This document shows, piece by piece, positions 8,668 to 48,342 of a DNA stretch of 59,125 nucleotides (position 1 is its first letter; each line of letters begins with the position of its first letter). Source of the DNA: Candidatus Omnitrophota bacterium (GTDB lineage Bacteria; Omnitrophota; Gorgyraeia; Zapsychrales; Zapsychraceae); the NCBI GenBank assembly GCA_015233405.1, contig JADFXT010000013.1:1-59125 (forward strand), read 5' to 3'. Below the pieces are notes generated by a model. The model saw only the letters and a list, made by a program, of their open reading frames with translations, ran no database searches and was not told the DNA's origin. The position numbers and the translations under genes are program-made.

Positions 8668-11346
8668 TTACTTGAGTTTAAGGACCTTTTGGCGTAAATT
8701 GCTCGCAATAACCTCATAAATTTCTTGTTTTCCTGAATCGTTCCCGTACAAATCATCTAAAGTTGCCCTGCTCCCAAATTTTACTTTTATTGGATACGGC
8801 ATCGGAAAACGCCGCGCTCTCGGCCACGCCTTAAAAGCTCCATCGATATAAACAGGAACGACAGGGACATTTAATTCTTTGATCAAAATCCCCACGCCTT
8901 TTTTAAAATCTTCCAATTCTCCGTCGAAAGACCGCTCTCCTTCGGGGAAATAGCAAACAATCTTTGATCTGCGCAAAGCAAAAGAACAAGCCCTTAAGGC
9001 TTCTATCAAGCTTACGCTTGAGTCTATCGGGATTATGCTGCCGGTTTTCACAAGCCTTTTCAGCAAAATATTCTTAAAAATAAGGCTATAGCCAACAAAT
9101 TGAACTTCTAGCGCCACTTTAAATGGAAGTCCGCTTAAAACAACAAGTCCATCCAGATAGCTGGTATGATTTGGACAAATCAAATACGGGCCATGCTCTT
9201 TTAAATTTTCTTTTCCCTCAACGCGCAAAAAGAAAAACACTTTAAAGATCAGTTTAATTAAAAGAATCAACGATATATTAATAATACGCACAAATAATCC
9301 GGCTTTAATGAAGATCTGATCCTGAATTTCCTGGCTGGGAGATTGTTTTATGATCTCGTCCCATTTGCGAGATGCTCCCGGTTTAACTTCTGCTGCTCCG
9401 TCGGGAAAGTATTCTCTAAGCTTTATTAACAGATCCTTAACCGTGCTACTGATAAAAAATTCAACCGCCTGCTCAGAGGACATCTCAAGCCCTAAGCGCT
9501 CTTGGAGCCCAAGAAAGACATCTATTCTGGAAAGAGAATCTAATCCTAAATCCAGTTCAAGATGGTCATTGATTTTTACCTCTTTTTTTAAGATATCTTT
9601 GAGCGCAGCCAATGCCGGTTTAGACATTTTTGAGTTATAGATTTCCAAATCGTTTTCATTCAATTCTTCTTTTTCTGTTTTATATCCTTGTTTAACAATT
9701 TTAAATATTTCTTCAACCTTATATCTCATGATCTTCCCTAAAGCTGTACGCGGCAAACTGTCTCTGACAATAACAAAATCACTAATATGTTTATAAGAAG
9801 GCTGTCCTGACGAACGATTTTCTATCTCAAATTTTATTTTTTCCCTTACGTTAGAGCTTTCGATATCGTAAAAACTTTTTTCTTCAATCACAATGACCGC
9901 CGCAAGGTGCTCAACACCGGCCAAGAACCCTTCTTTGCTCACGGGAAAAACACAGAGCTCTTTTATATATTTACTCTCGGAATAGATGTTTTCAATTTCT
10001 TCGGGGTCAATATTCTTCCCCGAGCTAAGAACAATGACGTTTTTCTTCCTTCCGACAAGATAAAGGTAATCATTTTTATCAATATATCCCAAATCTCCGC
10101 TATAGAACCAACCGTCTATGATGGCCTCGCGCGTTTTTTCCTCCTGTTTATAATAACCCGCCATGACATTCGGACCTTTTATTAATACTTCCCCCACGCC
10201 TCTTGAATCTGGATTTAATATTTTTATTTCAACCCCGGGCAGAGCCTTTCCTACCGAACCGATCTTGGGATTTTCTATGGGATTAAAAGCCGCTGCGGGA
10301 GACGTCTCAGTTAAACCATATCCCTCGATGATTGAAAATCCCCACTTGTAAAAAGATATCGCCACATTCTTGTCTAACCGCGCCCCTCCAGAAACCATAA
10401 GCCTCACTTGGCCTCCATAAGCCTTATGTAATTCAGAAAACATCTTTTTGCTCCAATTGACATTTGATAACTTCCTAATATAAAAAAATATTTCAGAGAA
10501 AGATTTAAGTGCATATTTTTTAAGCCCTTTTAAATTCTTTAATTCATCTTCAACATGTCTTTTCATCAAAGAAAATACCTGGGGGACAGCAACAAAAATC
10601 GTAACCTTTTCCTCTTTGATGCACGACAATAATTCCTTCGAAGAGAGACCGGAAGGGAATATAACCGTAGAGCCAGTAACTAGCGGCAAAAGCAGGGTCG
10701 TCGTAAATGCATAGGCATGGTGTAAAGGCAAAATGGAAATCATTCTGTCAGATCCTGTTACATTCGCCAGAGAGCTAAGGGCATGAATATTGAACAAAAG
10801 GTTTGAGTGGGTAAGCATGACCCCCTTCGGCTCATCCGTCGTACCCGACGTATAAAATATCGCAGCCAAAGAATCCGCATCCGCCCCTCCATTAAATATG
10901 TTATTATCAGGATACCCTGCCAATTTTTTGATTAAATCATCGGAGTCAATCGATAAAACAACAGCGTCTTTGATACTGTTAACAATCTCTTTGTAACGGT
11001 CCTTTTTGACAATTAATGCCTTGGCATCTGAATGGATCATGATCCTTTTAATCTGATCCAATGAAAACTGAACATCTAAAGGAACGACCGTAGCACCCAT
11101 CGACATGACAGCAAAGAAAGATACTGCGTATTCAGATTGATTGCCCAGGATAAATGCCACTTTATCTTTCGGCTTAACCCCCACATCTCTAAGAAGATTC
11201 GCCAGCTGTAAAGACTTGCTGAAGAGCTCAGAATATGTCAAACGCCAAGTAGCATCTTTGCCATGAGTAATAATCGAACTTTGTGAAGGAAATGCCTGAA
11301 CAGCACTTGAGAATTCTTCAAAAATATTATCAACTTTTTGTCGCAT
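8668..11346 (-). CDS. Tri-domain fatty acyl-AMP/CoA ligase - acyl carrier protein - PlsC-type (lysophospholipid) acyltransferase
   Basis: 892 aa. AMP-binding signature (IFYTSGTTDEPKGVMLTHSNL, GYGLTETS, SGDLGYIDKNDYLYLVGRKK). Phosphopantetheine attachment site (LDLGLDSLSRIDVF). A TM stretch, then acyltransferase HX4D (CPNHTSYLDGLV) and FPEGERS motifs. Confidence 0.85.
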   Translation of the reverse strand: MRQKVDNIFEEFSSAVQAFPSQSSIITHGKDATWRLTYSELFSKSLQLANLLRDVGVKPKDKVAFILGNQSEYAVSFFAVMSMGATVVPLDVQFSLDQIKRIMIHSDAKALIVKKDRYKEIVNSIKDAVVLSIDSDDLIKKLAGYPDNNIFNGGADADSLAAIFYTSGTTDEPKGVMLTHSNLLFNIHALSSLANVTGSDRMISILPLHHAYAFTTTLLLPLVTGSTVIFPSGLSSKELLSCIKEEKVTIFVAVPQVFSLMKRHVEDELKNLKGLKKYALKSFSEIFFYIRKLSNVNWSKKMFSELHKAYGGQVRLMVSGGARLDKNVAISFYKWGFSIIEGYGLTETSPAAAFNPIENPKIGSVGKALPGVEIKILNPDSRGVGEVLIKGPNVMAGYYKQEEKTREAIIDGWFYSGDLGYIDKNDYLYLVGRKKNVIVLSSGKNIDPEEIENIYSESKYIKELCVFPVSKEGFLAGVEHLAAVIVIEEKSFYDIESSNVREKIKFEIENRSSGQPSYKHISDFVIVRDSLPRTALGKIMRYKVEEIFKIVKQGYKTEKEELNENDLEIYNSKMSKPALAALKDILKKEVKINDHLELDLGLDSLSRIDVFLGLQERLGLEMSSEQAVEFFISSTVKDLLIKLREYFPDGAAEVKPGASRKWDEIIKQSPSQEIQDQIFIKAGLFVRIINISLILLIKLIFKVFFFLRVEGKENLKEHGPYLICPNHTSYLDGLVVLSGLPFKVALEVQFVGYSLIFKNILLKRLVKTGSIIPIDSSVSLIEALRACSFALRRSKIVCYFPEGERSFDGELEDFKKGVGILIKELNVPVVPVYIDGAFKAWPRARRFPMPYPIKVKFGSRATLDDLYGNDSGKQEIYEVIASNLRQKVLKLK

Positions 11347-11381
11347 ATTATGCCTGTATGGATATTAATAAATTTGCAAGA

Positions 11382-12257
11382 TTAATAAGAATGCGCTTCT
11401 TTAATGTTCGGAATGATTTTCGCAAAATCATAACCAGGGTAGAGCTCTTCAAGGAAACCAATTTTTTCCGGAGACATTTTCAGAAGGATGTCTGACTTAT
11501 TAACAAAGAAATACTCAATATCTTCAAGGCTTAGCTTGATCTTCCCCGAGAAACTTTCATGGTCGATTTCCCGAGAAAAGAACAACTGATATAATATCTT
11601 CGACCGATTAATTCTTGCACAATCTTCTTTGACTGTTTTTAAGTTTAGGCATTTTCCTAAAGCAGGAGCGCCGTTGACTTTGGCATAAGATTTTAAACCG
11701 CCGAGATCTTTAAACAGCAGATTGTCATATGTCATTTCATGCTTAGGATTGATTGCTATGCAGATATAATCCAGATTTAAGTACTCTATCGTATAATCGA
11801 AGATATATTTAAAAAGATAGTACACTAAAAACATTTTCCATGGGTTCAATAAAAGCGGGGTGCCTTCTTTAAATTTAAAAATGCTATTGTTAATTGCCAG
11901 CATCGATATTTCACAAAGCTTGTTCCCTTTTCTTAAGATATCCAATTCAGGCTTATACAAATCATCCATCGGAAGCCCAAAACAGGTATCCAGGATAACG
12001 CTTGCGGTTGCCAGTATTTCGTCGTCTGCAAGAGCAATAAAAGTCGTGTTCTCCGGCAGCAGATTATACTCGGAAAGATGTAACCCGGACTTGTTGTCGT
12101 TTTCATAATTTTTTTTTAAATATTCATTGTGGACCAAGGCATATGCTTGCTCTAATTCGTTCCGTGTGCGGGCGACCCTATATTGGATGCATTCCAAATA
12201 AGCCCGCATATGGTTCTTTTCACTCATAACCCGATTATTATTGTCGACTAAATTCAT
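11382..12257 (-). CDS. FeeM-like N-acyl amino acid synthase (GNAT / autoinducer-synthase-like fold), exosortase-system-associated type
   Basis: 291 aa. The pattern RVARTRNELEQAYALVHNEYLKKNY ... LHLSEYNLLPENTTFIALADDEILATASVILDTCFGLPMDDLY ... LCEISMLAI resembles long-chain N-acyl amino acid synthases. This is a by-eye assignment only. Confidence 0.6.
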   Translation of the reverse strand: MNLVDNNNRVMSEKNHMRAYLECIQYRVARTRNELEQAYALVHNEYLKKNYENDNKSGLHLSEYNLLPENTTFIALADDEILATASVILDTCFGLPMDDLYKPELDILRKGNKLCEISMLAINNSIFKFKEGTPLLLNPWKMFLVYYLFKYIFDYTIEYLNLDYICIAINPKHEMTYDNLLFKDLGGLKSYAKVNGAPALGKCLNLKTVKEDCARINRSKILYQLFFSREIDHESFSGKIKLSLEDIEYFFVNKSDILLKMSPEKIGFLEELYPGYDFAKIIPNIKEAHSY

Positions 12258-12262
12258 TTTTA

Positions 12263-12703
12263 TTATTTGCCCTGAACATCCGAATATTTAGACAAAATAT
12301 TATCACTCATAAAAGATATGAATTGTTTTTCATATTTTTGGCTTATTTCATCAAACTGAATTCCAATCAAATAATGCTGTTGAGGTGTGGCCTCTTCCTT
12401 TGCGCTCGAAGAGGCATGTTCTTTACACCAGACAATGGTTCCCCAAAAACACATCGGTTCAAGGTCCCCGGGCAAGGCTATCATGATTTGCAGTCTTGTG
12501 CCGAGGGCTAATTTCTCGTTAACATTTAAGCTTATTCCATTCCCGGAAATATTCTCAAGAGCAAACGGCCTTATCCATTCGCACGAGCAGGAATCCTTCT
12601 CTTCATTGAAGCTATATAACACTTCAACATCTAAAGACAACCGTTCACACCTGCGCTGGTCCTCAGAGATCATTTTCCGTATATCTTCAAATTTTTTAGT
12701 CAT
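12263..12703 (-). CDS. PilZ-domain protein (predicted c-di-GMP receptor)
   Basis: 146 aa. Both halves of the PilZ signature are present, RxxxR (QRRCERLSL) and (D/N)xSxxG (ENISGNGISL). Confidence 0.75.
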   Translation of the reverse strand: MTKKFEDIRKMISEDQRRCERLSLDVEVLYSFNEEKDSCSCEWIRPFALENISGNGISLNVNEKLALGTRLQIMIALPGDLEPMCFWGTIVWCKEHASSSAKEEATPQQHYLIGIQFDEISQKYEKQFISFMSDNILSKYSDVQGK

Positions 12704-12951
12704 TTTTAGATCCTAGGATCATTCTTGATTCCCGCTTGAGAAATATTTATTCCGACGAGGAAAGAGATGCCGTTAAAACACGAATTGCGGTTACACCATT
12801 CCCAAGTGCGTACTTTTGACGCTATTGTGAAGTAATCTCAAAATTAATCAATTGTACCAAGGTATAATAGGCAGAATTCTGCAGTTTGGTTGGAAGGAAA
12901 TGTGTTTTTCGACGACCAATCGTTTGCTTAAAGGGCAACTTAACAATCGAG

Positions 12952-14340
12952 TTAAAATAAATATTTGATTTCCGTATAAATGAGGTCTTTTGTGGTAAAC
13001 GCTCCAAAGGTGGTCGTTTGATCTCCCATAAAAATAAAGCCACCGAAAGAAACACTTACGCCATTATTAAATTTATATTCTATTCTTGGATTAATCATCG
13101 TGTCCTGATACGACAAACTATAGGACCAGTCCAAGTTAAAATTAACAATGCCCCGTTTAAAACTTTTCCTTATGCTCCCCGTTAGCCGTTTTGAGTTTTC
13201 TTCCTGCTCAAACAACCTTTCATAATCCATGACATGGTCAATGATCAACTGCACATCAATATATGTATCATTGCTCGTCGTGTGGTCAATTCCCAAGCCC
13301 ACAGATACAAGATTTTTTTTCACATAAGAAAAATCATCGCGCAAAAACGGCTGGCCGAGCAATACGCCAGTTTCCCCTCTTATGCCGAATGCTCCTATCA
13401 CGGTTTCCCAATCTGCGCCAATGACATTTAATCTCGGGTGAGCCTTTTCTAATATAAAATCATCCCCTGTTGGGGAAGCCGCTTCTAAGGCATTTAAATT
13501 ATCCGCGTTGGGAATATAGAGAAACTTTTTAACTAAATTACCCGTAGCTGTTTTCTCTTTTAAAACAGGGATGGAGTTGTGGACATTCATATAGTAAAGA
13601 GAATAGTCGACATCATTCATTTTGCTGGCAAACCGTATTCCCGCCTCACCATTTTTAAGGTCGTTATCCGTGACATTATCTTGGTCCTCTATAGCTATGG
13701 AGCTAACAATGTTTTTCTTAGCTTGGGACAAAACGCTGCTGTCGGCCACAGCTTGTTTTAAATTTTGAAACACCGCCCAGTCGGACCCAAAAAAATTCAC
13801 TAAGGAGGGCTTGAAAAATGGTTTAAAAACACTTTCCACCTTCCAATCTTCTTGGTTGTAGTCATACTTAAACATAAGCGCTGAACGTTTTCTCTCCTGC
13901 TTATCATAAAGGACAAACCTTCTATAATCTTGCGGGTTGATCTTATCCAAAATAACCACATCATCCAACTTGCCCCAAGTAACAATCTTTTCTCCAAAAG
14001 TAAAAACTTGGGCCCCTTTAGTAAGCTCTAAAAAATCCTCCTTAAATCTTAGACTGGTATCCGTAGAAGGATCATGATTATCAAAAGTTTCCAACCGGCC
14101 TTCCACATCCGCCTTGATCAAAAGCTCATGGTCGAGCATCCAGACATTGTTCTTGATGAGAACCATGGAGTCGGTAACAAGCTTATCTTCGAATGCATTG
14201 TTATCAACAGCATCCTGGTAGATGCGTGATCTAATCTCCCCTTTTTTATCCCATTGGATATTCGCGCTCTCTAGGGCAAACGCCCTTAAAGGAAAACATG
14301 CGGCAAAAAGGAAGAGTGGGAAAAATAGGTTGATTTTCAT
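12952..14340 (-). CDS. Putative outer-membrane beta-barrel protein (DUF1302-like)
   Basis: 462 aa. Signal peptide (MKINLFFPLFLFAACFPLRAFA), alternating beta-strand-like composition and a C-terminal aromatic residue (EIKYLF). It overlaps the upstream gene by 4 nt. Confidence 0.6.
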   Translation of the reverse strand: MKINLFFPLFLFAACFPLRAFALESANIQWDKKGEIRSRIYQDAVDNNAFEDKLVTDSMVLIKNNVWMLDHELLIKADVEGRLETFDNHDPSTDTSLRFKEDFLELTKGAQVFTFGEKIVTWGKLDDVVILDKINPQDYRRFVLYDKQERKRSALMFKYDYNQEDWKVESVFKPFFKPSLVNFFGSDWAVFQNLKQAVADSSVLSQAKKNIVSSIAIEDQDNVTDNDLKNGEAGIRFASKMNDVDYSLYYMNVHNSIPVLKEKTATGNLVKKFLYIPNADNLNALEAASPTGDDFILEKAHPRLNVIGADWETVIGAFGIRGETGVLLGQPFLRDDFSYVKKNLVSVGLGIDHTTSNDTYIDVQLIIDHVMDYERLFEQEENSKRLTGSIRKSFKRGIVNFNLDWSYSLSYQDTMINPRIEYKFNNGVSVSFGGFIFMGDQTTTFGAFTTKDLIYTEIKYLF

Positions 14341-15116
14341 TGTTTTTCTAGTCGATAAACCGTAAACAAATCATCCACTAAACCTTGGTTATAGTTGATC
14401 TCAAGCAGCTTCATTAAAGTCTTGTGCTGGTCCTTAAGATTCTCCATTTCCACTTGCGTTATGGTCCAAATCCCCTGCTTTATTTCAAAATTCTTAACCC
14501 TTAACTCTTTGGTCTTTTGAACTTTCTTATCATAAAAATCAACCCGTAAAACAAGATAACTTTCTTTATCTATCCAGCTTATGCGTTTCGAATATTGTGA
14601 CGCGCCGTCGCGAGGAATACTTTCAACAACGAAACAACTATGCCCATCCAAAGATTCTTCAGCTATAAGCTTATGCGCATCTTTTTCTGGTCGGCGCCTC
14701 TGCATATCTTCATAGGTATAATCCGTATTTACAAAAGCAAGGTTCTTTTGACTGCTTACGATTCTTCTCGCCCTACCCAATGCCGGCAAATATAGGTATT
14801 GCGTATTATCGGCATTTTTCTCTTCGATAGAAAGAAACCTTGTGTCCTTTATATCAGCAGGCTTAGAGAACTCAAGGAACGTCTTGGTCAGGTCTCCGAA
14901 ATCTTTTGAATATATCTCCAGGATCCTGCTTCTTAAATTGTTTTGCTTATCAACAAGGGTCATTTCTATCTTTGAGTAGCTGTCTTTTCCGTCGTCGCGA
15001 TTAAACGACTTTTCAATAATACTCGCGCCAGAGGGCGCTTCCGCAAAACTTTGTCTATATGCCAAAAGCACACAAAAAGCGATAATAACACCTACAAATA
15101 GATTTCTCATGTTCAA
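14337..15116 (-). CDS. LolA-like outer-membrane lipoprotein-sorting family protein
   Basis: 259 aa. Signal peptide present. Family-typical segments are YSKIEMTLVDKQNNLRSRILEIYSKDF, FSKPADIKDTRFLS and YLYLPALGRARRIVSSQKNLAFVNTDYTYEDM. Confidence 0.75.
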   Translation of the reverse strand: MNMRNLFVGVIIAFCVLLAYRQSFAEAPSGASIIEKSFNRDDGKDSYSKIEMTLVDKQNNLRSRILEIYSKDFGDLTKTFLEFSKPADIKDTRFLSIEEKNADNTQYLYLPALGRARRIVSSQKNLAFVNTDYTYEDMQRRRPEKDAHKLIAEESLDGHSCFVVESIPRDGASQYSKRISWIDKESYLVLRVDFYDKKVQKTKELRVKNFEIKQGIWTITQVEMENLKDQHKTLMKLLEINYNQGLVDDLFTVYRLEKQ

Positions 15117-16003
15117 CTCTTTCCTGAAAAAGTTTTAAAGAGATACCATCTTTTTAATCTTTGTATAGGATTTCTGTTGCCCCACAAAAGATATCCCTTC
15201 TTATATTCTTGCTCATAGGGATCGAACTGAAAATAATACGGCACAGGTTTTAGATTTTTTTTGCTTAACAGGATTTTTAACGTTTCCGTTATGATCAGCG
15301 TATTACATAAATGGCAGGAGGAAACTAACGCTGGCCCAGTCTTGGCGCTTATATCAACCTTGCTAAGGTCGCAATACTTCATATGAATGGACGCTGGCGC
15401 CAGCCCGACAGCAAAAGCAATCAATTTTTCTAACCAGCTCATTTTATCGTTGATGTCAAAATACTCATCAAAGCTCATGGATGTCGGAGAAAAAACCAGA
15501 AGAGCGCTTCCAAACCCCAATGGACCCGCCGTCACCGAATAGATCCCTCTTTTTTTAGCCTCAGCGAATATCAACCTTCTCGTCTCAATACAAAAAAAGT
15601 CTATTCCATCCACCAAGACATCAACGCCATCCAGAAACTCGCCGATATTTTGTTTGTCGACGCCTTTATTAAAACTATCTATTTCCAGATGTGGATTTAT
15701 GCTCAAAGCGATTTCTTTCATTGTATCTGATTTGTTCTTGCCAAGGGTGTCCATCGAAGACCCATATTGCCTCTGTATATTAGCAATATCAAAATCGTCC
15801 ATGTCTGCGATATTGAATTTTCCAATACCTGTTCTGACCAAGCCGATCAAATGGGACCCGCCAACGCCTCCGCATCCGGCAATGGCAATTTTAGAAGATC
15901 TCAATATCTTTTGTTCCTCTTCCGTTAACACGCCGATATTGCGGTTAAAGGCTTTATCGTAGAACAAATCAACATCATTACAATATTTTGAAAAATCGTT
16001 CAT
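15113..16003 (-). CDS. ThiF/MoeB/HesA-family E1-like adenylyltransferase
   Basis: 296 aa. Nucleotide-binding motif KIAIAGCGGVGGSHLIGLVRTGIGKFNIADMDDFDIANIQRQ. A single CxxC (CHLC). It has 4-nt overlaps with the downstream LolA-like gene. Confidence 0.8.
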   Translation of the reverse strand: MNDFSKYCNDVDLFYDKAFNRNIGVLTEEEQKILRSSKIAIAGCGGVGGSHLIGLVRTGIGKFNIADMDDFDIANIQRQYGSSMDTLGKNKSDTMKEIALSINPHLEIDSFNKGVDKQNIGEFLDGVDVLVDGIDFFCIETRRLIFAEAKKRGIYSVTAGPLGFGSALLVFSPTSMSFDEYFDINDKMSWLEKLIAFAVGLAPASIHMKYCDLSKVDISAKTGPALVSSCHLCNTLIITETLKILLSKKNLKPVPYYFQFDPYEQEYKKGYLLWGNRNPIQRLKRWYLFKTFSGKS

Positions 16004-16019
16004 AGTATTTCACTACGCC

Positions 16020-18365
16020 TTATTTGAACTTGGGTTTAAAAAAAGTCAACAGCGCCGGATTCAGAACAAGTTCTATCCATAATCCATTAAAAATAAGAAC
16101 AGCGCTCAATATTCCAAAATAATAGGTCGGCACAAACCGTGAAAAACCAACCACGCCAAAACCCATGATCAAAATCAAAGAAGTAATCACAGTCGGCCTG
16201 CCTTTGGAAGCAAAACAACGGTAAACCGACTCTTCTCTATTATTATTTGTCTTCTTCATCTCTTCGCCAAATGCATGAAAAAAATGTATCGTATCATCCA
16301 CAATAATACCTATCCCGATATCAGAGATCATACTCGTCGCGCTATCAAGCCTAATGGCAAACAATCCCATGATCCCGAAATTAACCAGAAGCGGTAATAA
16401 ATTCGGGATGATGCTTAAGAACCCTACCGGAATAGACCTAAAATCGATAAACATCATTCCAAAAATGACAAGCATCGCGAATGCTAAACTCAGCACCTGG
16501 CCGTTTGTAACGGCCTCGTTGGAATCAACCTCTAAAACAGTCTGGCCTAAAACTCTTGAGGAAATGCCCGCCGGCACGTTTTCTTTTAAGTAGCTATTGA
16601 TCTCAGCAATAATCTTTTGTAATTTCGCCGTGCTATGCTCTTTTAAACGCACCCGTACGCTTGCCCACTCCCAACGCGAATCCATGAATTTGCTTAAATC
16701 ATCAGCTCCGTACAAAAGCACATATTGAGCAACTAAATTACGCGAATCGGGAATTGCATAATAACGCGCATCTTCATCATGAAACGATTTATTAATTTCC
16801 TTAAGATAATCCACAACTGAGGTCACTTTATCGACCACGGGAATGGTGTATAAAAATTTTTCAATGTCCTCTATCTTTTTAAGTTCACGAGGATCTTTAA
16901 AGTAATCTTCTGTGCCTGCACGCAAAGAAATATTGATCATGTGAACGCCGCTTAGATGGCTTTCAATAAAGTCCGTGGCCTGGCGAACGGGACTATCTTT
17001 TCTAAAATATTCAATGACGCTTGTTTCTGTTTTTATCTTAAACGTTGCCCATGTCGAAACAATCCCAACCACCAAAGATGTGATGAGAATAATTTCTTTG
17101 TGCCGGATACTAAACCGCGCAACAGACATTATTATTTTATCAGGCGCCTCTTGTAAGAATGCAAACCCGTAAAGTTCAGTATCGTTTGCCCCAGTGGCTT
17201 GATCTTTGGGATTGTATAAATGTCGTAGAAGAGAAAACTGTTTTATGACAGCCGGCAGAAATGTGAACGTAATAATAAAGGCAAAAAATACTCCGGTACC
17301 GGCGACAAAACCTAATTGTTGGATAGGCGGAACAGAGCTTATCAATAACGAATAAAATCCCACAACCGTCGTGATGTTCGTAAGAAAACACGGCCAAAAA
17401 AGATGGTGCATTGTATCGCGAATGATCTCATTTTGGTTGCTATCTAAGTCCTTCGGTTTTAATCTTACGCTCTTGAGGATCAACTCCCATAAAAAATGAA
17501 TGCTCTCAAGCAAAGTAATGCTTAACATGACCGGCGGGATAATGGTCGTGACATTATTTATTGAGAATCCGCAGAGATACAAAAACGCCATTGTCCACAC
17601 AAGAGAAATAAGCGTTCCAACCAAAGGCAGCAGGACGCCATAAAAAGTGCGAAAACTTAATATCAGGACGGCCAATAAGATCAAGAACATCAGCGGGATA
17701 AAAGTCGCCAAGTCCGATTGCATAAACCGAGCATAAATGACCTCTATGGTCGTAAAACCGCTGACATAATATTTCTTTCCCTTTGGAAATTCTTCTATTA
17801 AGACCTTATTGACATTATCAACCAGCTCTTTTTTATATTTATCCTCCGAACCCTTTTTGTGGATTAATTCAATTATAAAGGCCGTGGAAGTCCCATCCGC
17901 AGAAATTACATTCTTTAAGAACAACGGATTTGATAAAGCCCTGTGCCTTAAGGCCTTCAATGCTACAGGGTCTTCAGGAACGTTTTCAACAAAAGGCCGG
18001 ACAATAAAGTCTTGTTCTTGACCGATAACGTCATTGACATTCGTCAGGCTGGTCACTTTATCAACGTCGGGTAAATCTTCAAAACGATTGGTGAGGCGGG
18101 AAATGAGCTCTAAATTTTTTTGGGTAAATATATCTGCATCTTTAAACGCGACCATAACAACCTGATCGCTGCCAAATTGTTCTTTCCAAGCTTGAAAATC
18201 AATATAATTACTACTTTTTTTATTAAAAAAAACATCGACGCCGTTATCCATTTTAATTTGAGGCAAAACAGCAACGGATAAGACGGTAACTAAGGCTGTA
18301 AGGATAATGACAGCAGAAGAATGATCAAGGATATATCTGAAAAATTTATCTAGAATATTTTTCAT
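16020..18365 (-). CDS. MMPL/RND-superfamily exporter (HpnN-like lipid transporter type)
   Basis: 781 aa. Two blocks of TM helices each follow a large periplasmic domain. The N-terminus is typical of this family (ILTALVTVLSVAVLPQIKMDNGVDVFF ... FGSDQVVMVAF). Confidence 0.85.
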   Translation of the reverse strand: MKNILDKFFRYILDHSSAVIILTALVTVLSVAVLPQIKMDNGVDVFFNKKSSNYIDFQAWKEQFGSDQVVMVAFKDADIFTQKNLELISRLTNRFEDLPDVDKVTSLTNVNDVIGQEQDFIVRPFVENVPEDPVALKALRHRALSNPLFLKNVISADGTSTAFIIELIHKKGSEDKYKKELVDNVNKVLIEEFPKGKKYYVSGFTTIEVIYARFMQSDLATFIPLMFLILLAVLILSFRTFYGVLLPLVGTLISLVWTMAFLYLCGFSINNVTTIIPPVMLSITLLESIHFLWELILKSVRLKPKDLDSNQNEIIRDTMHHLFWPCFLTNITTVVGFYSLLISSVPPIQQLGFVAGTGVFFAFIITFTFLPAVIKQFSLLRHLYNPKDQATGANDTELYGFAFLQEAPDKIIMSVARFSIRHKEIILITSLVVGIVSTWATFKIKTETSVIEYFRKDSPVRQATDFIESHLSGVHMINISLRAGTEDYFKDPRELKKIEDIEKFLYTIPVVDKVTSVVDYLKEINKSFHDEDARYYAIPDSRNLVAQYVLLYGADDLSKFMDSRWEWASVRVRLKEHSTAKLQKIIAEINSYLKENVPAGISSRVLGQTVLEVDSNEAVTNGQVLSLAFAMLVIFGMMFIDFRSIPVGFLSIIPNLLPLLVNFGIMGLFAIRLDSATSMISDIGIGIIVDDTIHFFHAFGEEMKKTNNNREESVYRCFASKGRPTVITSLILIMGFGVVGFSRFVPTYYFGILSAVLIFNGLWIELVLNPALLTFFKPKFK

Positions 18366-19403: not shown

Positions 19404-20294
19404 TTATCTAGCTCCCTCACCGGTTAAAACAACTCTAAACGTCCTAAAGAAAATCCTTAGATCCGTCCATAAACAAATCTTTTTTATATAGAGAATGTCG
19501 TACTTCACTTTCTTTTTGACATCATCGATCGTTTCATCGTATCTGTTCCAAACTTGCGCTAATCCGGTTAATCCAGGCTTTACAGAAAGCCTTTTTTCAT
19601 AATCCGGGATCTCTCTTATAAACTTTTCCACAAAAACCGGTCTCTCAGGTCTTGGCCCGATTAAACTCATATCACCTTTAAGGATATTTAGAAATTGAGG
19701 TATCTCATCAATATGGGCTTTTCTTAAAAATTTAGCGCAAGGAATGAACCTTTTATCATTTTCAGAAGCCCAAACAGGACCAGTTTCTTTCTCAGCGTCT
19801 ACGCGCATGGTCCGGAATTTATATATCAAAAAAGCTTTACCGTTTTTTCCAACCCGTATTTGGTTATAAAAAATCGGGCCTTTTGATCCTAATTTTATGA
19901 TGATGGATGTAATCAAAAACAACGGTGAGAGAACGATTAAACCTATAATACCCGCCAAAATATCCAAAATTCTTTTAGTAACAGCATAGGTCCTGCGGAC
20001 AAAGCTAACCAACATTCCAAACAAGCCGCTTCCAAAAAGAATGATAGTTGAAGATTCTGGCATTACTGGCCTAACAGGATCCAACGGAGCGAGCAATGGA
20101 TTTTGATTCTTTGGGGAATACTTCATCTCACCTATAGGAATATCCAGCGATTTTGCATCTTCAAATCGGACATAGTTATTTAGCTGTATGGAGGATGCTG
20201 TAAAAGCCCAGGCAGAAGCTCTAGATAAAAAAATCAGCGTAAACATACCTGCAATCAAAATAAAATATTTAATTTTTCCAAGTATGCCTATCAT
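19404..20294 (-). CDS. Polyprenyl-phosphate sugar-phosphate transferase (small Bac_transf/PglC-WbaP-C type) fused to an N-terminal signal peptide plus PEP-CTERM-like segment
   Basis: 296 aa. Residues 1-30 form a signal peptide (LIFLSRASAWA). Residues 78-101 read MPESSTIILFGSGLFGMLVSFVRR. From residue 105 onward it is a canonical small PGT (KRILDILAGIIGLIVLSPLFLITSIIIKLGSKGPIFYNQIRVGKNGKAFLIYKFRTM, DEIPQFLNILKGDMSLIGPRPERP). Confidence 0.9.
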   Translation of the reverse strand: MIGILGKIKYFILIAGMFTLIFLSRASAWAFTASSIQLNNYVRFEDAKSLDIPIGEMKYSPKNQNPLLAPLDPVRPVMPESSTIILFGSGLFGMLVSFVRRTYAVTKRILDILAGIIGLIVLSPLFLITSIIIKLGSKGPIFYNQIRVGKNGKAFLIYKFRTMRVDAEKETGPVWASENDKRFIPCAKFLRKAHIDEIPQFLNILKGDMSLIGPRPERPVFVEKFIREIPDYEKRLSVKPGLTGLAQVWNRYDETIDDVKKKVKYDILYIKKICLWTDLRIFFRTFRVVLTGEGAR

Positions 20295-20353
20295 TGCTTT
20301 TGCTCCTCTTTTTATTCGGGGAAACGTTTTTTTTAATTCCCGTATTATATTGG

Positions 20354-20369
20354 AGCAAAATGCGTGCCA
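20354..20369 (-). promoter_or_regulatory. Sigma-54 (-24/-12) promoter
   Basis: The minus strand reads TGGCACGCATTTTGCT, a perfect match to TGGCACG-N4-TTGCW. It lies about 60 nt upstream of the ATG at 20294, which has the SD AAAGAGGAG. Confidence 0.75.
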
Positions 20370-20601: not shown

Positions 20602-21255
20602 TTACGGAAGGTATGTTCTTAAATACGGAGTTATCAATCCTGCAAACTCTCTTAAAGTTTTTTCTGCACCGGCAATGTCATTATTTTTAACAACGGTTGA
20701 AATTCGAATTAACGCGCTGCTTGATGGTTTTCCCATAAGAGTTTTAAAAGCAATTAACATTTGCTGCTTCCAATAACTTGCCGTAAATTCATCTCCCACT
20801 TTGAACCAATACATCAGCGATTGCTGCATTCCTAACCCATCCATAACCAGATTATTAAAAGGCAGATCTATGCCTTTAGGATCATCTTTTGTTGCTATAT
20901 GAATCGATTGGGTTTTCTTACTGATGGCCATTGTCCCTCCTCCTGTATAACAAATCTCTGGAGGATGCGAAACCTTTCTATTTCTTTGGGAATAAACAAC
21001 AAAAAAGTTAACATTCTCGCCGGAAGGTAAATGATAATGCCGAATAAAAGCATTTTTTGTTTCTAAAACAGCATATTCTGTTTTGGAAAGCTCTACTTCC
21101 TCAGATGTCCAGTTCCCGATCGTCCGCGGGAACCCATGGATGCTTACCGTATCTTTATACAAATAAACCTTAAAGTAACTGTTCCACGACACCACGCATA
21201 CAGATAAGAAAAGAATTATAATGAGCACGTATTTTAAGTCAAATTTGGTTTTCAT
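20602..21255 (-). CDS. EpsI-family exosortase-associated protein
   Basis: 217 aa. N-terminal TM helix, then FPRTIGNWTSEEVEL ... FIRHYHLPSGENVNFFVVYS ... SHPPEICYTGGG, the pattern typical of EpsI. It sits immediately downstream of the exosortase gene. Confidence 0.8.
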   Translation of the reverse strand: MKTKFDLKYVLIIILFLSVCVVSWNSYFKVYLYKDTVSIHGFPRTIGNWTSEEVELSKTEYAVLETKNAFIRHYHLPSGENVNFFVVYSQRNRKVSHPPEICYTGGGTMAISKKTQSIHIATKDDPKGIDLPFNNLVMDGLGMQQSLMYWFKVGDEFTASYWKQQMLIAFKTLMGKPSSSALIRISTVVKNNDIAGAEKTLREFAGLITPYLRTYLP

Positions 21256-21275: not shown

Positions 21276-22094
21276 TCATTCCAACAGTTTTCCAATTGAA
21301 TAAAGCAACAAAAAGGCTAAAGCAAATACTACAAATCCTGTCCCGTCATGAACAAAATGATTTATATATTGGGGTCCCCAGATTTCGCTAATACTTGCAA
21401 GAATAAGAACCCGGCATACATTTGTTATAACAGCTATGGGTATCGCACTAGCAAACAAAACACATCTTTTGATTATTGGGCCCTTCAGCCAATAGGCAAA
21501 GATGCTTCCCAAAGCCATTAATGATATCAACGACCTTAGGCCGCTGCAGACATCATCCACAATGACCTCAGAAGTAGGCATTTTAATGATGCTTCCTTGT
21601 TGTACCGCCGGTATTCGCATATGATTGAGTAACCATGTGGCCAACGTCGTGGCAAACATTTTTAAACGAAAACTTATATTGACGATAGCCACTTCCGGCA
21701 GAGGAACCATAAAAAGCAAGAACGCCAGCGGAAATGAAATCTTCAAAAACATTTCCTTGCCCCAAAAATATAGCACCATTCCATAAAGGACAATCAGCAT
21801 GGATAACCCTGAGGAAAAATATATTCTAAATAAAGAACTCAACAAATAAATAACAAGTCCGATGATTATCAAAGGCAGCCCTAGTGGAGATTCTTTGGGC
21901 TTTATCATTTTGAGCTTATCTCTAATCTGCCATATCAAAAAACAGCTAACAAACGGGACAAGAACTCCATGGCTGTAATACGAATCCCGGACAAACCACC
22001 GATCCCACATCCAATGCAAGATTGGAAAATAAGCCAGGATGAATAAAATGCCGGCAAAAGCTTGCTTCTTGTAGTCATTAATGAATTTTCTCAT
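21276..22094 (-). CDS. Exosortase (EpsH/Xrt family) transpeptidase
   Basis: 272 aa with about 8 TM helices. Signature blocks are WMWDRWFVRDSYYSHGVLVP, MVPLPE, the catalytic-Cys block DDVCSGLRSLISL, NVCRV and HFVHDGTGFVVF. Confidence 0.9.
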   Translation of the reverse strand: MRKFINDYKKQAFAGILFILAYFPILHWMWDRWFVRDSYYSHGVLVPFVSCFLIWQIRDKLKMIKPKESPLGLPLIIIGLVIYLLSSLFRIYFSSGLSMLIVLYGMVLYFWGKEMFLKISFPLAFLLFMVPLPEVAIVNISFRLKMFATTLATWLLNHMRIPAVQQGSIIKMPTSEVIVDDVCSGLRSLISLMALGSIFAYWLKGPIIKRCVLFASAIPIAVITNVCRVLILASISEIWGPQYINHFVHDGTGFVVFALAFLLLYSIGKLLE

Positions 22095-44666: not shown

Positions 44667-45488
44667 TTAAAAGGGCGACATAACTGATCGTCCTGCTCCA
44701 GCAGCCGTAATTACAGGATTTGTGACAGGTTGTATCACTCTCATGATCTTTGTCATGACAGTCGACGGAATATACAAAGTATCTCCCGGCTTCATCACAA
44801 GATTTTCTTTAAGATCACCTTCGTAAAGTAATTTATTAACATCCACGTGCTTAATGACAGGCTGATTCTTAAGCGATGGAGTTATCAGCTTGCTGTTAGA
44901 AGCTTTTGCGCTGAGCAGTGGAAGACCGGCTCTTATCAGCGCCTCTCTAACTGTTATAGAGTCTCCTCGCATAAAAACTTTCCCCGGCAGGCCGACTTCT
45001 CCAATGACATAAACAACCTTGCTATTATATTCTGCAATTTTCAAAGATATTTCCGGAGAAAAAATGTAAGTTGAAAGTTTTTTCTTGATAAGTTCTGTGG
45101 CTTGGTCTTTCTTCAGCCCGGCAAGAGTAATATCTCCCACAAATTCATACTGAATATTGCCTTCATCGTTTATAGAATATTTTCCGCTTACCTCAGGATG
45201 CCGTAGAACAGTAATTTCGATGACATCAGTAGCGCCTAAAGTATATTGACTTGCAGCTTGTTCTTCAGTAGCAGCTCCAGGTTCCGGAGCAATTCCTTCG
45301 TCCATGAGCATTTTGTTGACATCGCTCTCATTAAGTTTCGGATTCAGGGCTGTTTCTGTCTTCTTCGGCGCTTCTTTTATAGGAGAAGCGTCCTTTGAAA
45401 AATTCTGAGAATTGGCATTTCCTGTTAAAAAGGCATAAAAACAGATAAAAATAAACCCAATTACTACGTATTTCCTTGTTATTTTCAT
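44667..45488 (-). CDS. Wza-like polysaccharide export protein (Poly_export plus SLBB)
   Basis: 273 aa. Signal peptide present. YTLGATDVIEITV, GEVGLPG and PGDTLYIP blocks. Confidence 0.8.
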   Translation of the reverse strand: MKITRKYVVIGFIFICFYAFLTGNANSQNFSKDASPIKEAPKKTETALNPKLNESDVNKMLMDEGIAPEPGAATEEQAASQYTLGATDVIEITVLRHPEVSGKYSINDEGNIQYEFVGDITLAGLKKDQATELIKKKLSTYIFSPEISLKIAEYNSKVVYVIGEVGLPGKVFMRGDSITVREALIRAGLPLLSAKASNSKLITPSLKNQPVIKHVDVNKLLYEGDLKENLVMKPGDTLYIPSTVMTKIMRVIQPVTNPVITAAGAGRSVMSPF

Positions 45489-47662: not shown

Positions 47663-48277
47663 TTAAATCTTCCGTCGTTTAAAGAATGCTCCGAATAAAC
47701 CTGTGCCGAACAAAATTACCGAGGCTGGTTCTGGTATTGCATTCGTGGTTTCCACCCTTAAAGAAACTCCCTTATTCCAGTAATGGCAATCCGGATCAAA
47801 TCCAAAACCGAAATTACCGTCAGCATCAAACAAATTAAAACGATCAATTTCACTCTTGGAAAACAAACAGCTGTAATCTTCGACATGCCCGCGCGGACCA
47901 CCATCTTTATCCGTATAAGTATCGAGAAGAATGTCCGAAATATGTTTATTTTTAGCCCATCGCGCCACACCATCTCCGCTCGACGGGGTATCTCTTTTAA
48001 CAATTAAACCAGGACTTACTTTGTCCAGAAGGTCTATGTAGAGAACATTCTTTTTATTGTTCCAGTTATTAATATCATCGATTTTTAACGTTATATTTTT
48101 TACCGTCTCTCCCGTTACCGGTTTCCAATTAATACCCCAAAGGTAATAGTTATAATGATCCAGGTCAAATAGATTAGCTTGGCGCGGAGTGAGCTCATAA
48201 ATCGTAGCAAAAGCCTGCGGAATTAAGAAAAGTAAAAATAATGTTGCAATTCCAAACAATAGTACGGTTTTTTTCAT
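47663..48277 (-). CDS. Secreted PEP-CTERM sorting-domain protein
   Basis: 204 aa. Signal peptide (LFLLFLIPQAFA) and C-terminal tail AIPEPASVILFGTGLFGAFFKRRKI. Confidence 0.9.
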   Translation of the reverse strand: MKKTVLLFGIATLFLLFLIPQAFATIYELTPRQANLFDLDHYNYYLWGINWKPVTGETVKNITLKIDDINNWNNKKNVLYIDLLDKVSPGLIVKRDTPSSGDGVARWAKNKHISDILLDTYTDKDGGPRGHVEDYSCLFSKSEIDRFNLFDADGNFGFGFDPDCHYWNKGVSLRVETTNAIPEPASVILFGTGLFGAFFKRRKI

Positions 48278-48326: not shown

Positions 48327-48342
48327 AGCAACTTTTATGCCA
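48327..48342 (-). promoter_or_regulatory. Sigma-54 (-24/-12) promoter
   Basis: The minus strand reads TGGCATAAAAGTTGCT. GG and GC spacing is correct, with TGGCA and TTGCT boxes. It lies about 50 nt upstream of the ATG at 48277, which has the SD AAAGGAG. Confidence 0.65.

Follow-up and report, generated by a model that had tools for sequence, protein, structure and literature searches.

Why would a predicted sugar transferase that acts at the membrane's cytoplasmic face carry, within its own chain, a segment resembling the PEP-CTERM sorting signal? This question is raised by a gene on contig JADFXT010000013.1 of a Candidatus Omnitrophota bacterium (assembly GCA_015233405.1), analyzed here as a stretch of 59,125 nucleotides that we call the window. 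Exosortases have been known in exopolysaccharide (EPS) loci since 2006, and the gene in question lies directly downstream of genes for an exosortase and its associated protein EpsI. The encoded protein has 296 amino acids and joins a PEP-CTERM-like module in frame to a predicted small monotopic phosphoglycosyl transferase (PGT). By analogy with known exosortase substrates, we judge it somewhat probable (roughly 55%) that the fused PGT is an exosortase client, which would be recognized, probably cut at its PE(P/S) motif, and left in place as an enzyme anchored by its transmembrane (TM) helix.

A PEP-CTERM-like module ahead of a small PGT

The fusion gene and its upstream elements are laid out as follows, where A1 is an alignment of 53 sequences from the family and pLDDT is the predicted local distance difference test score.

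19404..20294, minus strand: 296-amino-acid fusion protein (signal peptide, spacer, PEP-CTERM-like module, small monotopic PGT); open reading frame (ORF), Pfam and NCBIfam matches, about 230 homologues alike
20208..20294, minus strand: predicted Sec-type signal peptide, residues 1-29 (K7 and K9; h-region 10-24; A-W-A at 27-29); hydropathy and charge map
20061..20207, minus strand: spacer of residues 30-78, periplasmic or a vestige of cargo, with variable sequence and predicted disorder; A1 and pLDDT
19992..20060, minus strand: PEP-CTERM-like module, residues 79-101, with the PES motif, TM helix and RR; TIGR02595, 15.1 bits
19887..19991, minus strand: basic linker (TYAVTKR) and predicted re-entrant membrane helix with an S123-P124 break; invariant residues, PglC alignment, AlphaFold model
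19407..19886, minus strand: predicted cytoplasmic catalytic domain of the PGT, including the D196-E197 dyad and the GPRPE motif; PF02397, Foldseek
20303..20310, minus strand: Shine-Dalgarno (SD) sequence AAGAGGAG, 8 nucleotides before the ATG at 20294; read from the sequence
20354..20369, minus strand: sigma-54 type -24/-12 promoter TGGCACGCATTTTGCT, an exact match to the consensus about 60 nucleotides upstream of the ATG

The catalytic part is readily assigned. The Bac_transf family (PF02397) matches residues 107-290 with 223.1 bits (E 2.5e-66) against a gathering score of 27, and the fused gene is the only Bac_transf gene in the window. Residue 10 of the 205-amino-acid PglC of Campylobacter (8e37/8g1n) aligns to residue 106 of the fusion protein. 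Because this alignment begins near the start of PglC, a complete small PGT follows the module, as an earlier reading of the sequence without database searches (the sequence-only reading) had proposed. The AlphaFold model (pLDDT 78.5) matches 8e37 and 8g1n in Foldseek with an E value of 2e-12 and a target-normalized template-modelling score (TMt) of 0.74-0.80; WbaP (8t53) was also matched.

The predicted re-entrant helix extends from K107 and R108 to L122, S123 and P124, wherein P124 is invariant and the modeled helix breaks at residue 122. Also invariant are D196, E197 and G213-P-R-P-E217. In the alignment the Asp-Glu pair falls opposite the DE within LDELPQ of PglC, and we take that DE to be the catalytic dyad of the enzyme. 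With these features, the fusion protein is a predicted PglC-type small monotopic PGT. Two further models stayed below their cut-offs and were matched only in part: TIGR03013 (261.6 versus 393.35 bits, model positions 251-443 only) and TIGR03025, EPS_sugtrans (292.6 versus 295.55 bits, model positions 249-445 only). In the AlphaFold model, the module helix also runs unbroken into the first arm of the re-entrant helix. This arrangement cannot be right in a membrane, and the model is uninformative on packing.

Upstream of the PGT, residues 76-101 (nucleotides 19992-20069) read PVMPESSTIILFGSGLFGMLVSFVRR, of which residues 79-101 are PESSTIILFGSGLFGMLVSFVRR. The motif directly abuts the hydrophobic TM helix (residues 83-99, TIILFGSGLFGMLVSFV), and the R100-R101 basic cluster comes next. 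The module is not at the extreme C-terminus, as a further 195 residues, the whole PGT, follow the basic cluster. The sequence-only reading was correct that this cluster is followed by a stretch without methionine, although the first such residue is M163 and not residue 162.

A signal peptide was assigned by rule from its n-region, h-region and AWA c-region. About 92% of orthologues have an AxA-type site, and 60 of 117 have AWA itself. The loop spanning residues 100-108 carries four Lys or Arg residues and no Asp or Glu, and spacer residues 32-78 are net neutral. An N-out/C-in topology is predicted by these rules and is self-consistent. Thus, both the cleavable-looking signal peptide and the topology of the sequence-only reading hold up. 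The spacer is variable: its pLDDT falls below 50-60, A1 has 32% gaps there, and its length past the predicted signal-peptidase site ranges from 11 to 64 residues across the family, with a median of about 35. The mean frequency of the top residue in A1 is 0.19 for the spacer, 0.79 for the module and 0.84 for the catalytic domain; by this measure the module matches the catalytic domain in conservation and the spacer does not.

A widespread fusion with a genuine PEP-CTERM homologue

The best 120 homologues, 118 of them full-length, are almost all about 280 amino acids long, and every one whose source is named comes from Candidatus Omnitrophica. The junction ...[KR]SRAPEPSTLALFGSGILGMIVSFVRRTY...KRxxD, with PEP at the same position, occurs in 114 of the 118. 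A profile search of 1.84 billion representatives revealed 16 further fused proteins among its top 150, and a second set of 120 homologues seeded by those 16 has the junction in 115 cases (PEP in 110, PEA in 2, PEF in 2 and PES in 1). About 230 distinct database proteins have the junction, approximately 95% of them with PEP, and 19 diverse members show no insertion or deletion from PEP to the Asp of KRxxD. When the junction profile by itself (A2) was used as the query, only short PGT fragments were recovered, which gave no measure of its spread.

Three subgroups can be distinguished. Subgroup (a) comprises proteins of about 280 amino acids that resemble the window protein, and subgroup (b) proteins of about 290 amino acids with ...KSHAPEPSTLFLILSG...RFARKSF. 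In subgroup (c), the proteins have about 480 amino acids, a beta-rich N-terminal domain of 240 residues is conserved, and the PGT carries an Arg-rich insert. One member, P0207, is annotated as Elusimicrobiota. These proteins stand under generic names in the databases, and for about half of them a combination of PF07589 and PF02397 had been precomputed by Pfam.

Could the fusion nevertheless be an artefact, either because a small PEP-CTERM ORF was run into the PGT by a frameshift or the loss of a stop, or because translation truly starts at M78 and the 77 upstream codons are untranslated? The database call for the window gene (P0001, 219 amino acids, 19404-20063) does start at M78, and five other entries (P0070, P0182, P0250, P0405 and P0494) have starts placed at or inside the module. 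However, about 230 independent proteins, drawn from many samples, share an identical in-frame junction with fixed spacing, which agrees with the sequence-only reading that this is a true fusion and not two genes. The start at ATG 20294 is better supported than M78, since it is preceded at 8 nucleotides by a strong SD sequence and by a conserved sigma-54 promoter, and it yields a conserved signal peptide with its AxA site. Met78 is not conserved, as 109 of 118 orthologues have Ala there. In L001, L081, L082, L084 and L094 the sigma-54 element likewise precedes the orthologous PGT gene, and L092 has a form with one mismatch there. We consider an artefact extremely improbable, and on these comparisons of sequence the fusion is real and old. 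Gene callers often place the start at the module or within it, so that many entries are missing the signal peptide and spacer and do not reveal the architecture. An Rfam scan of the window gave no match, and a scan for sigma-70 promoters and terminators gave matches at or below chance.

Identification of the module as a sorting signal is borderline when judged from the window sequence alone, and two features of this copy weigh against its being an exosortase target. First, both curated cut-offs are just missed (TIGR02595, 15.1 versus 16 bits; PF07589, 11.5 versus 20.7 bits). Second, the canonical Pro-Glu-Pro is replaced by P79-E80-S81. The sequence-only reading had described a match "nearly residue for residue" to the two bona fide PEP-CTERM tails of the window, which was an overstatement: the identities are 10/25 and 13/25, and 17/25 to the orthologue consensus.

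The family presents a firmer picture. Although the window protein falls short in the PEP-CTERM scan that had been suggested, 48 of 53 orthologues match TIGR02595 at E<=0.02, and the Pfam PEP-CTERM gathering score is reached by 7 of 10 long forms and by the L005 protein (8/11 together). In A1, P79, E80, R100, Y103, K107, R108 and D111 are invariant, and proline at position 81 is at least 90% conserved.

The long forms provide a further argument that the tag is genuine, because the cargo that precedes it has homologues among free-standing PEP-CTERM proteins. In P0126, a choice-of-anchor N domain (53.8 bits against a cut-off of 40) is followed by PEP-CTERM (21.8 bits) and then the PGT. A free-standing 525-amino-acid PEP-CTERM protein, which is encoded right behind the fused PGT in L087, shares 46-62% identity over its residues 264-500 with the N-terminal domain of subgroup (c). 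Residues 3-181 of P0207 match the window PEP-CTERM protein at 47663-48277 (BLASTP, E 2e-19). Thus, the same domains exist both as ordinary sorted proteins and joined via a sorting signal to a PGT. Together, these comparisons indicate that the module is a genuine PEP-CTERM homologue.

Two other characteristics of the long forms were observed. Residues ~60-240 of P0129, the conserved long-form cargo, are predicted to be beta-rich and have a weak fold match to family 9 carbohydrate-binding modules (E 0.01). In addition, the PGTs of P0126, P0128, P0129, P0164, P0207 and their relatives carry a 25-35-residue Arg-rich insert past RVGxN, which the short forms lack.

The serine of the window copy is one base away from the family proline (CCT to TCT). 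PES is found elsewhere in P0105 and P0464, which belong to different subgroups, and PEA and PEF are also rare. The closest orthologue (P0002, 69% identical) has the canonical PEP in a locus of identical arrangement, L094. Because of this orthologue and the scatter of PES across subgroups, we read PES as a sporadic variant of a normally canonical signal. It does not define a clade or a special class of pseudo-substrates, and the proposal that PES marks a non-cleavable pseudo-substrate is not borne out.

The exosortase locus and the probable fate of the fused enzyme

PEP-CTERM sorting signals are expected to co-occur with an exosortase. The gene order in the window is epimerase, exosortase, EpsI, fused PGT, PepA-like PEP-CTERM protein, MMPL, ThiF, LolA-like, DUF1302, PilZ, FeeM and AMP-binding/carrier/acyltransferase. 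The features that bear on sorting and regulation are:

21276..22094, minus strand: exosortase (EpsH family); TIGR02602, 184 bits, with the cut-offs of the general models TIGR02602 and TIGR04178 both reached
20602..21255, minus strand: EpsI, exosortase-associated protein; TIGR02914, 94.9 bits, and PF11984
18502..19293, minus strand: canonical PEP-CTERM protein (PepA-like), directly downstream of the fusion; PF07589, 23.7 bits, and TIGR02595, 18.0 bits
47663..48277, minus strand: second canonical PEP-CTERM protein, a homologue of the P0207 cargo; PF07589, 27.3 bits
46201..47589, plus strand: rpoN (sigma-54); Sigma54_AID, Sigma54_CBD and Sigma54_DBD domains

Exosortases are regarded as Cys/Arg/His endopeptidases, and possibly transpeptidases, that cleave PEP-CTERM (bioRxiv 10.1101/2023.06.07.544157; PMC1569441). 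Across the exosortases encoded in fused loci, C183, R228 and H249 do not vary, and the set is intact in the adjacent enzyme. This enzyme scores below every named Xrt cut-off (XrtD, 184 versus 400; XrtA, 175.9 versus 208), and it may represent an undescribed subtype common to the fused loci, whose exosortases are 44-60% identical to each other.

The association between fusion and exosortase is not confined to the window. In the window, L001, L081, L082, L084, L086, L092 and L094, the fusion comes directly after genes for an exosortase and EpsI, and these eight loci share the order exosortase, EpsI, fusion, PEP-CTERM gene. A PEP-CTERM gene is the next after the fusion in L005, L081, L084, L087 and L094. 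The co-occurrence that the sequence-only reading had suggested tabulating was recovered: an exosortase and EpsI are encoded within 10 kb in 8 of 11 distinct fused loci versus 3 of 78 non-fused PGT loci. The control loci come from a profile scan of genome contigs and are, among the matches listed, mostly unrelated large PGTs; among those matches the fusion occurs in L001 and L005 only.

The PepA-like gene is probably co-transcribed with the fused PGT, and the 110-nucleotide gap between them showed neither a sigma-54 site nor a terminator. A sigma-54-like site with one mismatch (48327-48342, minus strand) also lies upstream of the PEP-CTERM gene at 47663-48277. The rpoN gene is encoded between the two sigma-54 sites of the window (20354-20369 and 48327-48342, both minus strand). 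The window also encodes many glycosyltransferases and a Wza-like exporter (44667-45488).

These findings suggest the following model. The fused gene would be transcribed from the sigma-54 promoter, probably along with the downstream PEP-CTERM gene. The Sec signal peptide would target the precursor, the short spacer would cross to the periplasm, and the PE(P/S)-TM-RR module would act as a stop-transfer helix that fixes an N-out/C-in orientation. The re-entrant helix and catalytic domain would then sit on the cytoplasmic face, where the enzyme is predicted to prime an EPS repeat unit on polyprenyl phosphate. The module would make the PGT a client of the neighboring exosortase and EpsI, with recognition expected from what is known of these families and most probably followed by a cut at the motif. 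The cut would remove a vestigial periplasmic stub, or a real cargo domain in the long forms, and the TM-anchored PGT would stay at or near the exosortase. In effect, EPS initiation would be coupled to the machinery for protein sorting, whether in space, in amount or in activity.

The motif residues lie outside the membrane and yet are invariant, and in the short forms only a variable stub is left of the cargo although the tag persists. Both facts point to selection on the PGT-exosortase interaction itself. The sequence-only reading had raised the possibility that cleavage releases the enzyme. This is unlikely, because the PGT would still hold its TM helix and re-entrant helix after the cut.

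Recognition could also occur without cleavage. The module might be a stable tether that sits in the substrate groove of the exosortase, uncut or slowly turned over, such that the PGT becomes a subunit-like partner and the PES form is the extreme case. In keeping with this, the TM helix residues (LFGSGxxGMxxSF) are more conserved than generic sorting needs, the short-form spacer has no conserved function, and PES, PEA and PEF are tolerated. However, about 95% of the family keep the canonical PEP that exosortases are thought to cleave, and long-form cargo would need to be released in order to behave like its free homologues. For these two reasons cleavage is the likelier outcome. The sporadic nature of PES also argues against docking, given the canonical motif of the closest orthologue in the same locus, and we regard an uncut tether as unlikely.

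Other observations speak against the client model. Sorting normally discards the fragment on the C-terminal side of the cut, whereas here it would have to stay functional. The association statistic is generous: Fisher's test gives p = 2e-6 for 7/10 fused versus 3/78 non-fused loci (before L094 was included), but the loci are related and their independence is thereby overstated. Three fused loci (L005, L087 and L093) show no exosortase within the available DNA. Moreover, eight relatives (P0127, P0131, P0134, P0135, P0143, P0146, P0158 and P0161) keep the TM helix and basic linker with a decayed motif, so plain anchoring suffices in some lineages.

The last two points, and the AlphaFold helix that runs on into the PGT's own helix, would fit an exosortase-independent anchor. 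The module would then be a leftover of fusion with an upstream PEP-CTERM gene and would now serve as a TM helix that holds or orients the PGT, perhaps dimerizing via a GxGxxG face. Such an anchor would need no specific residues on the periplasmic side, where P79 and E80 are nonetheless invariant and P81 is nearly so. It is also at odds with the tight conserved gene position after exosortase and EpsI, and with PEP-CTERM model scores above the cut-offs in most members. We therefore hold it to be quite improbable, and favor the exosortase client.

A bolder version of the client model can be proposed tentatively. The module might be an internal junction at which exosortase cleavage yields an active enzyme as the leaving group, and processing might license, position or set the amount of the only priming transferase of the locus. 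If so, EPS synthesis would begin only where and when the sorting machine works, and the long forms would give a surface protein and a glycan-priming enzyme from one polypeptide. This would be the first sorting signal shown to be a switch for an enzyme on the cytoplasmic face, and it would offer a direct experimental handle on exosortases in EPS loci.

Several other gene associations were noted around these loci. After the exosortase operon, positions 8668-18365 (minus strand) of the window encode an MMPL transporter, ThiF-like, LolA-like/DUF1329, DUF1302 and PilZ proteins, a FeeM-type N-acyl amino acid synthase, and a protein that combines AMP-binding, carrier and acyltransferase parts. The order is the same in L082 and L094, and in part in L092. 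The set looks like a module to make and export a lipid, and this lipid might be an anchor for exosortase substrates.

A PF05635 gene (23S rRNA intervening-sequence protein) lies between exosortase and EpsI in L082 (8365-8724) and L086 (1820-2173), and just upstream of the exosortase in L084 (2714-3100); the window has none. A gene pair for a protein of about 290 amino acids with no Pfam match and then a TPR protein recurs beside the fused PGT or a PEP-CTERM gene array (L084, 14273-16038; L086, 11589-13365; L093, 5600-7322; L087, 13021-15308), including loci with no nearby exosortase. In the Gemmatimonadales loci L017, L052 and L080, an exosortase gene comes directly after a non-fused PGT gene, so that the two functions are paired there in a separate, unfused way.

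Comparison with known sorting and priming systems

The fusion may physically link polysaccharide priming to surface-protein sorting. Here sorting and glycan synthesis are joined within one polypeptide, an arrangement shared by hundreds of Omnitrophota sequences and found in at least one genome of Elusimicrobiota. As a predicted exosortase substrate, the fused PGT would be small, simple and testable, and it might recast why exosortases live in EPS loci. It also suggests that "C-terminal" sorting signals can be used internally, and that gene callers and family models mis-start or under-describe such proteins.

We know of no case in which an enzyme domain follows such a sorting signal. In the literature that could be searched by full text, we found no description of a fusion of PEP-CTERM with a PGT, in agreement with the impression given by the sequence-only reading. 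The original description of the PEP-CTERM system lists PF02397 only as a neighboring gene family (Haft et al. 2006, PMC1569441). The monotopic PGTs have been classified as small, large and bifunctional, with PEP-CTERM and exosortase unmentioned there (PMC11257628), and the fused form falls in none of these three classes. The protein thus appears to be a new domain architecture made from known parts, and one at odds with the definition of a sorting signal.

Among priming enzymes, the small monotopic PGTs (PglC; 8e37, 8g1n and the 5W7L class) share with the fusion the re-entrant helix with its Ser-Pro break, the Asp-Glu dyad, the GPRPE motif and the fold. However, PglC starts a few residues ahead of the re-entrant helix, whereas the fusion adds a signal peptide, a spacer and a full TM helix. 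The XrtA/PEP-CTERM system glycosyltransferase (TIGR03013, EpsB_2), WbaP and WcaJ have homologous Bac_transf catalytic domains, as the TIGR03013 score reflects, and there too a priming enzyme is genetically linked to an exosortase system. Unlike the fusion, those proteins have about 445 amino acids, with a four-TM bundle and a nucleotide-binding-like domain, and carry no sorting signal.

Among sorting systems, the pairs archaeosortase/PGF-CTERM, rhombosortase/GlyGly-CTERM and sortase/LPXTG likewise combine a tripartite signal with a dedicated membrane enzyme that cuts it, and the upstream part is passed to an anchor. In all described cases of these systems, however, the signal ends the protein (bioRxiv 10.1101/2023.06.07.544157).

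A close likeness also exists to canonical PEP-CTERM proteins (PMC1569441), which have a signal peptide, PE(P) against a Gly-rich TM helix, a basic cluster, and a gene beside exosortase and EpsI in an EPS locus. The fusion is probably sigma-54 dependent, as is the RpoN-dependent PEP-CTERM gene reported in Aquincola (PMC9850573). It differs in that its "cargo" is a variable stub of about 50 amino acids and that, in the window copy, the motif is PES and the model scores fall slightly short of the cut-offs. Its signal is internal and is followed by a predicted cytoplasmic enzyme, such that the part normally discarded is the functional protein.

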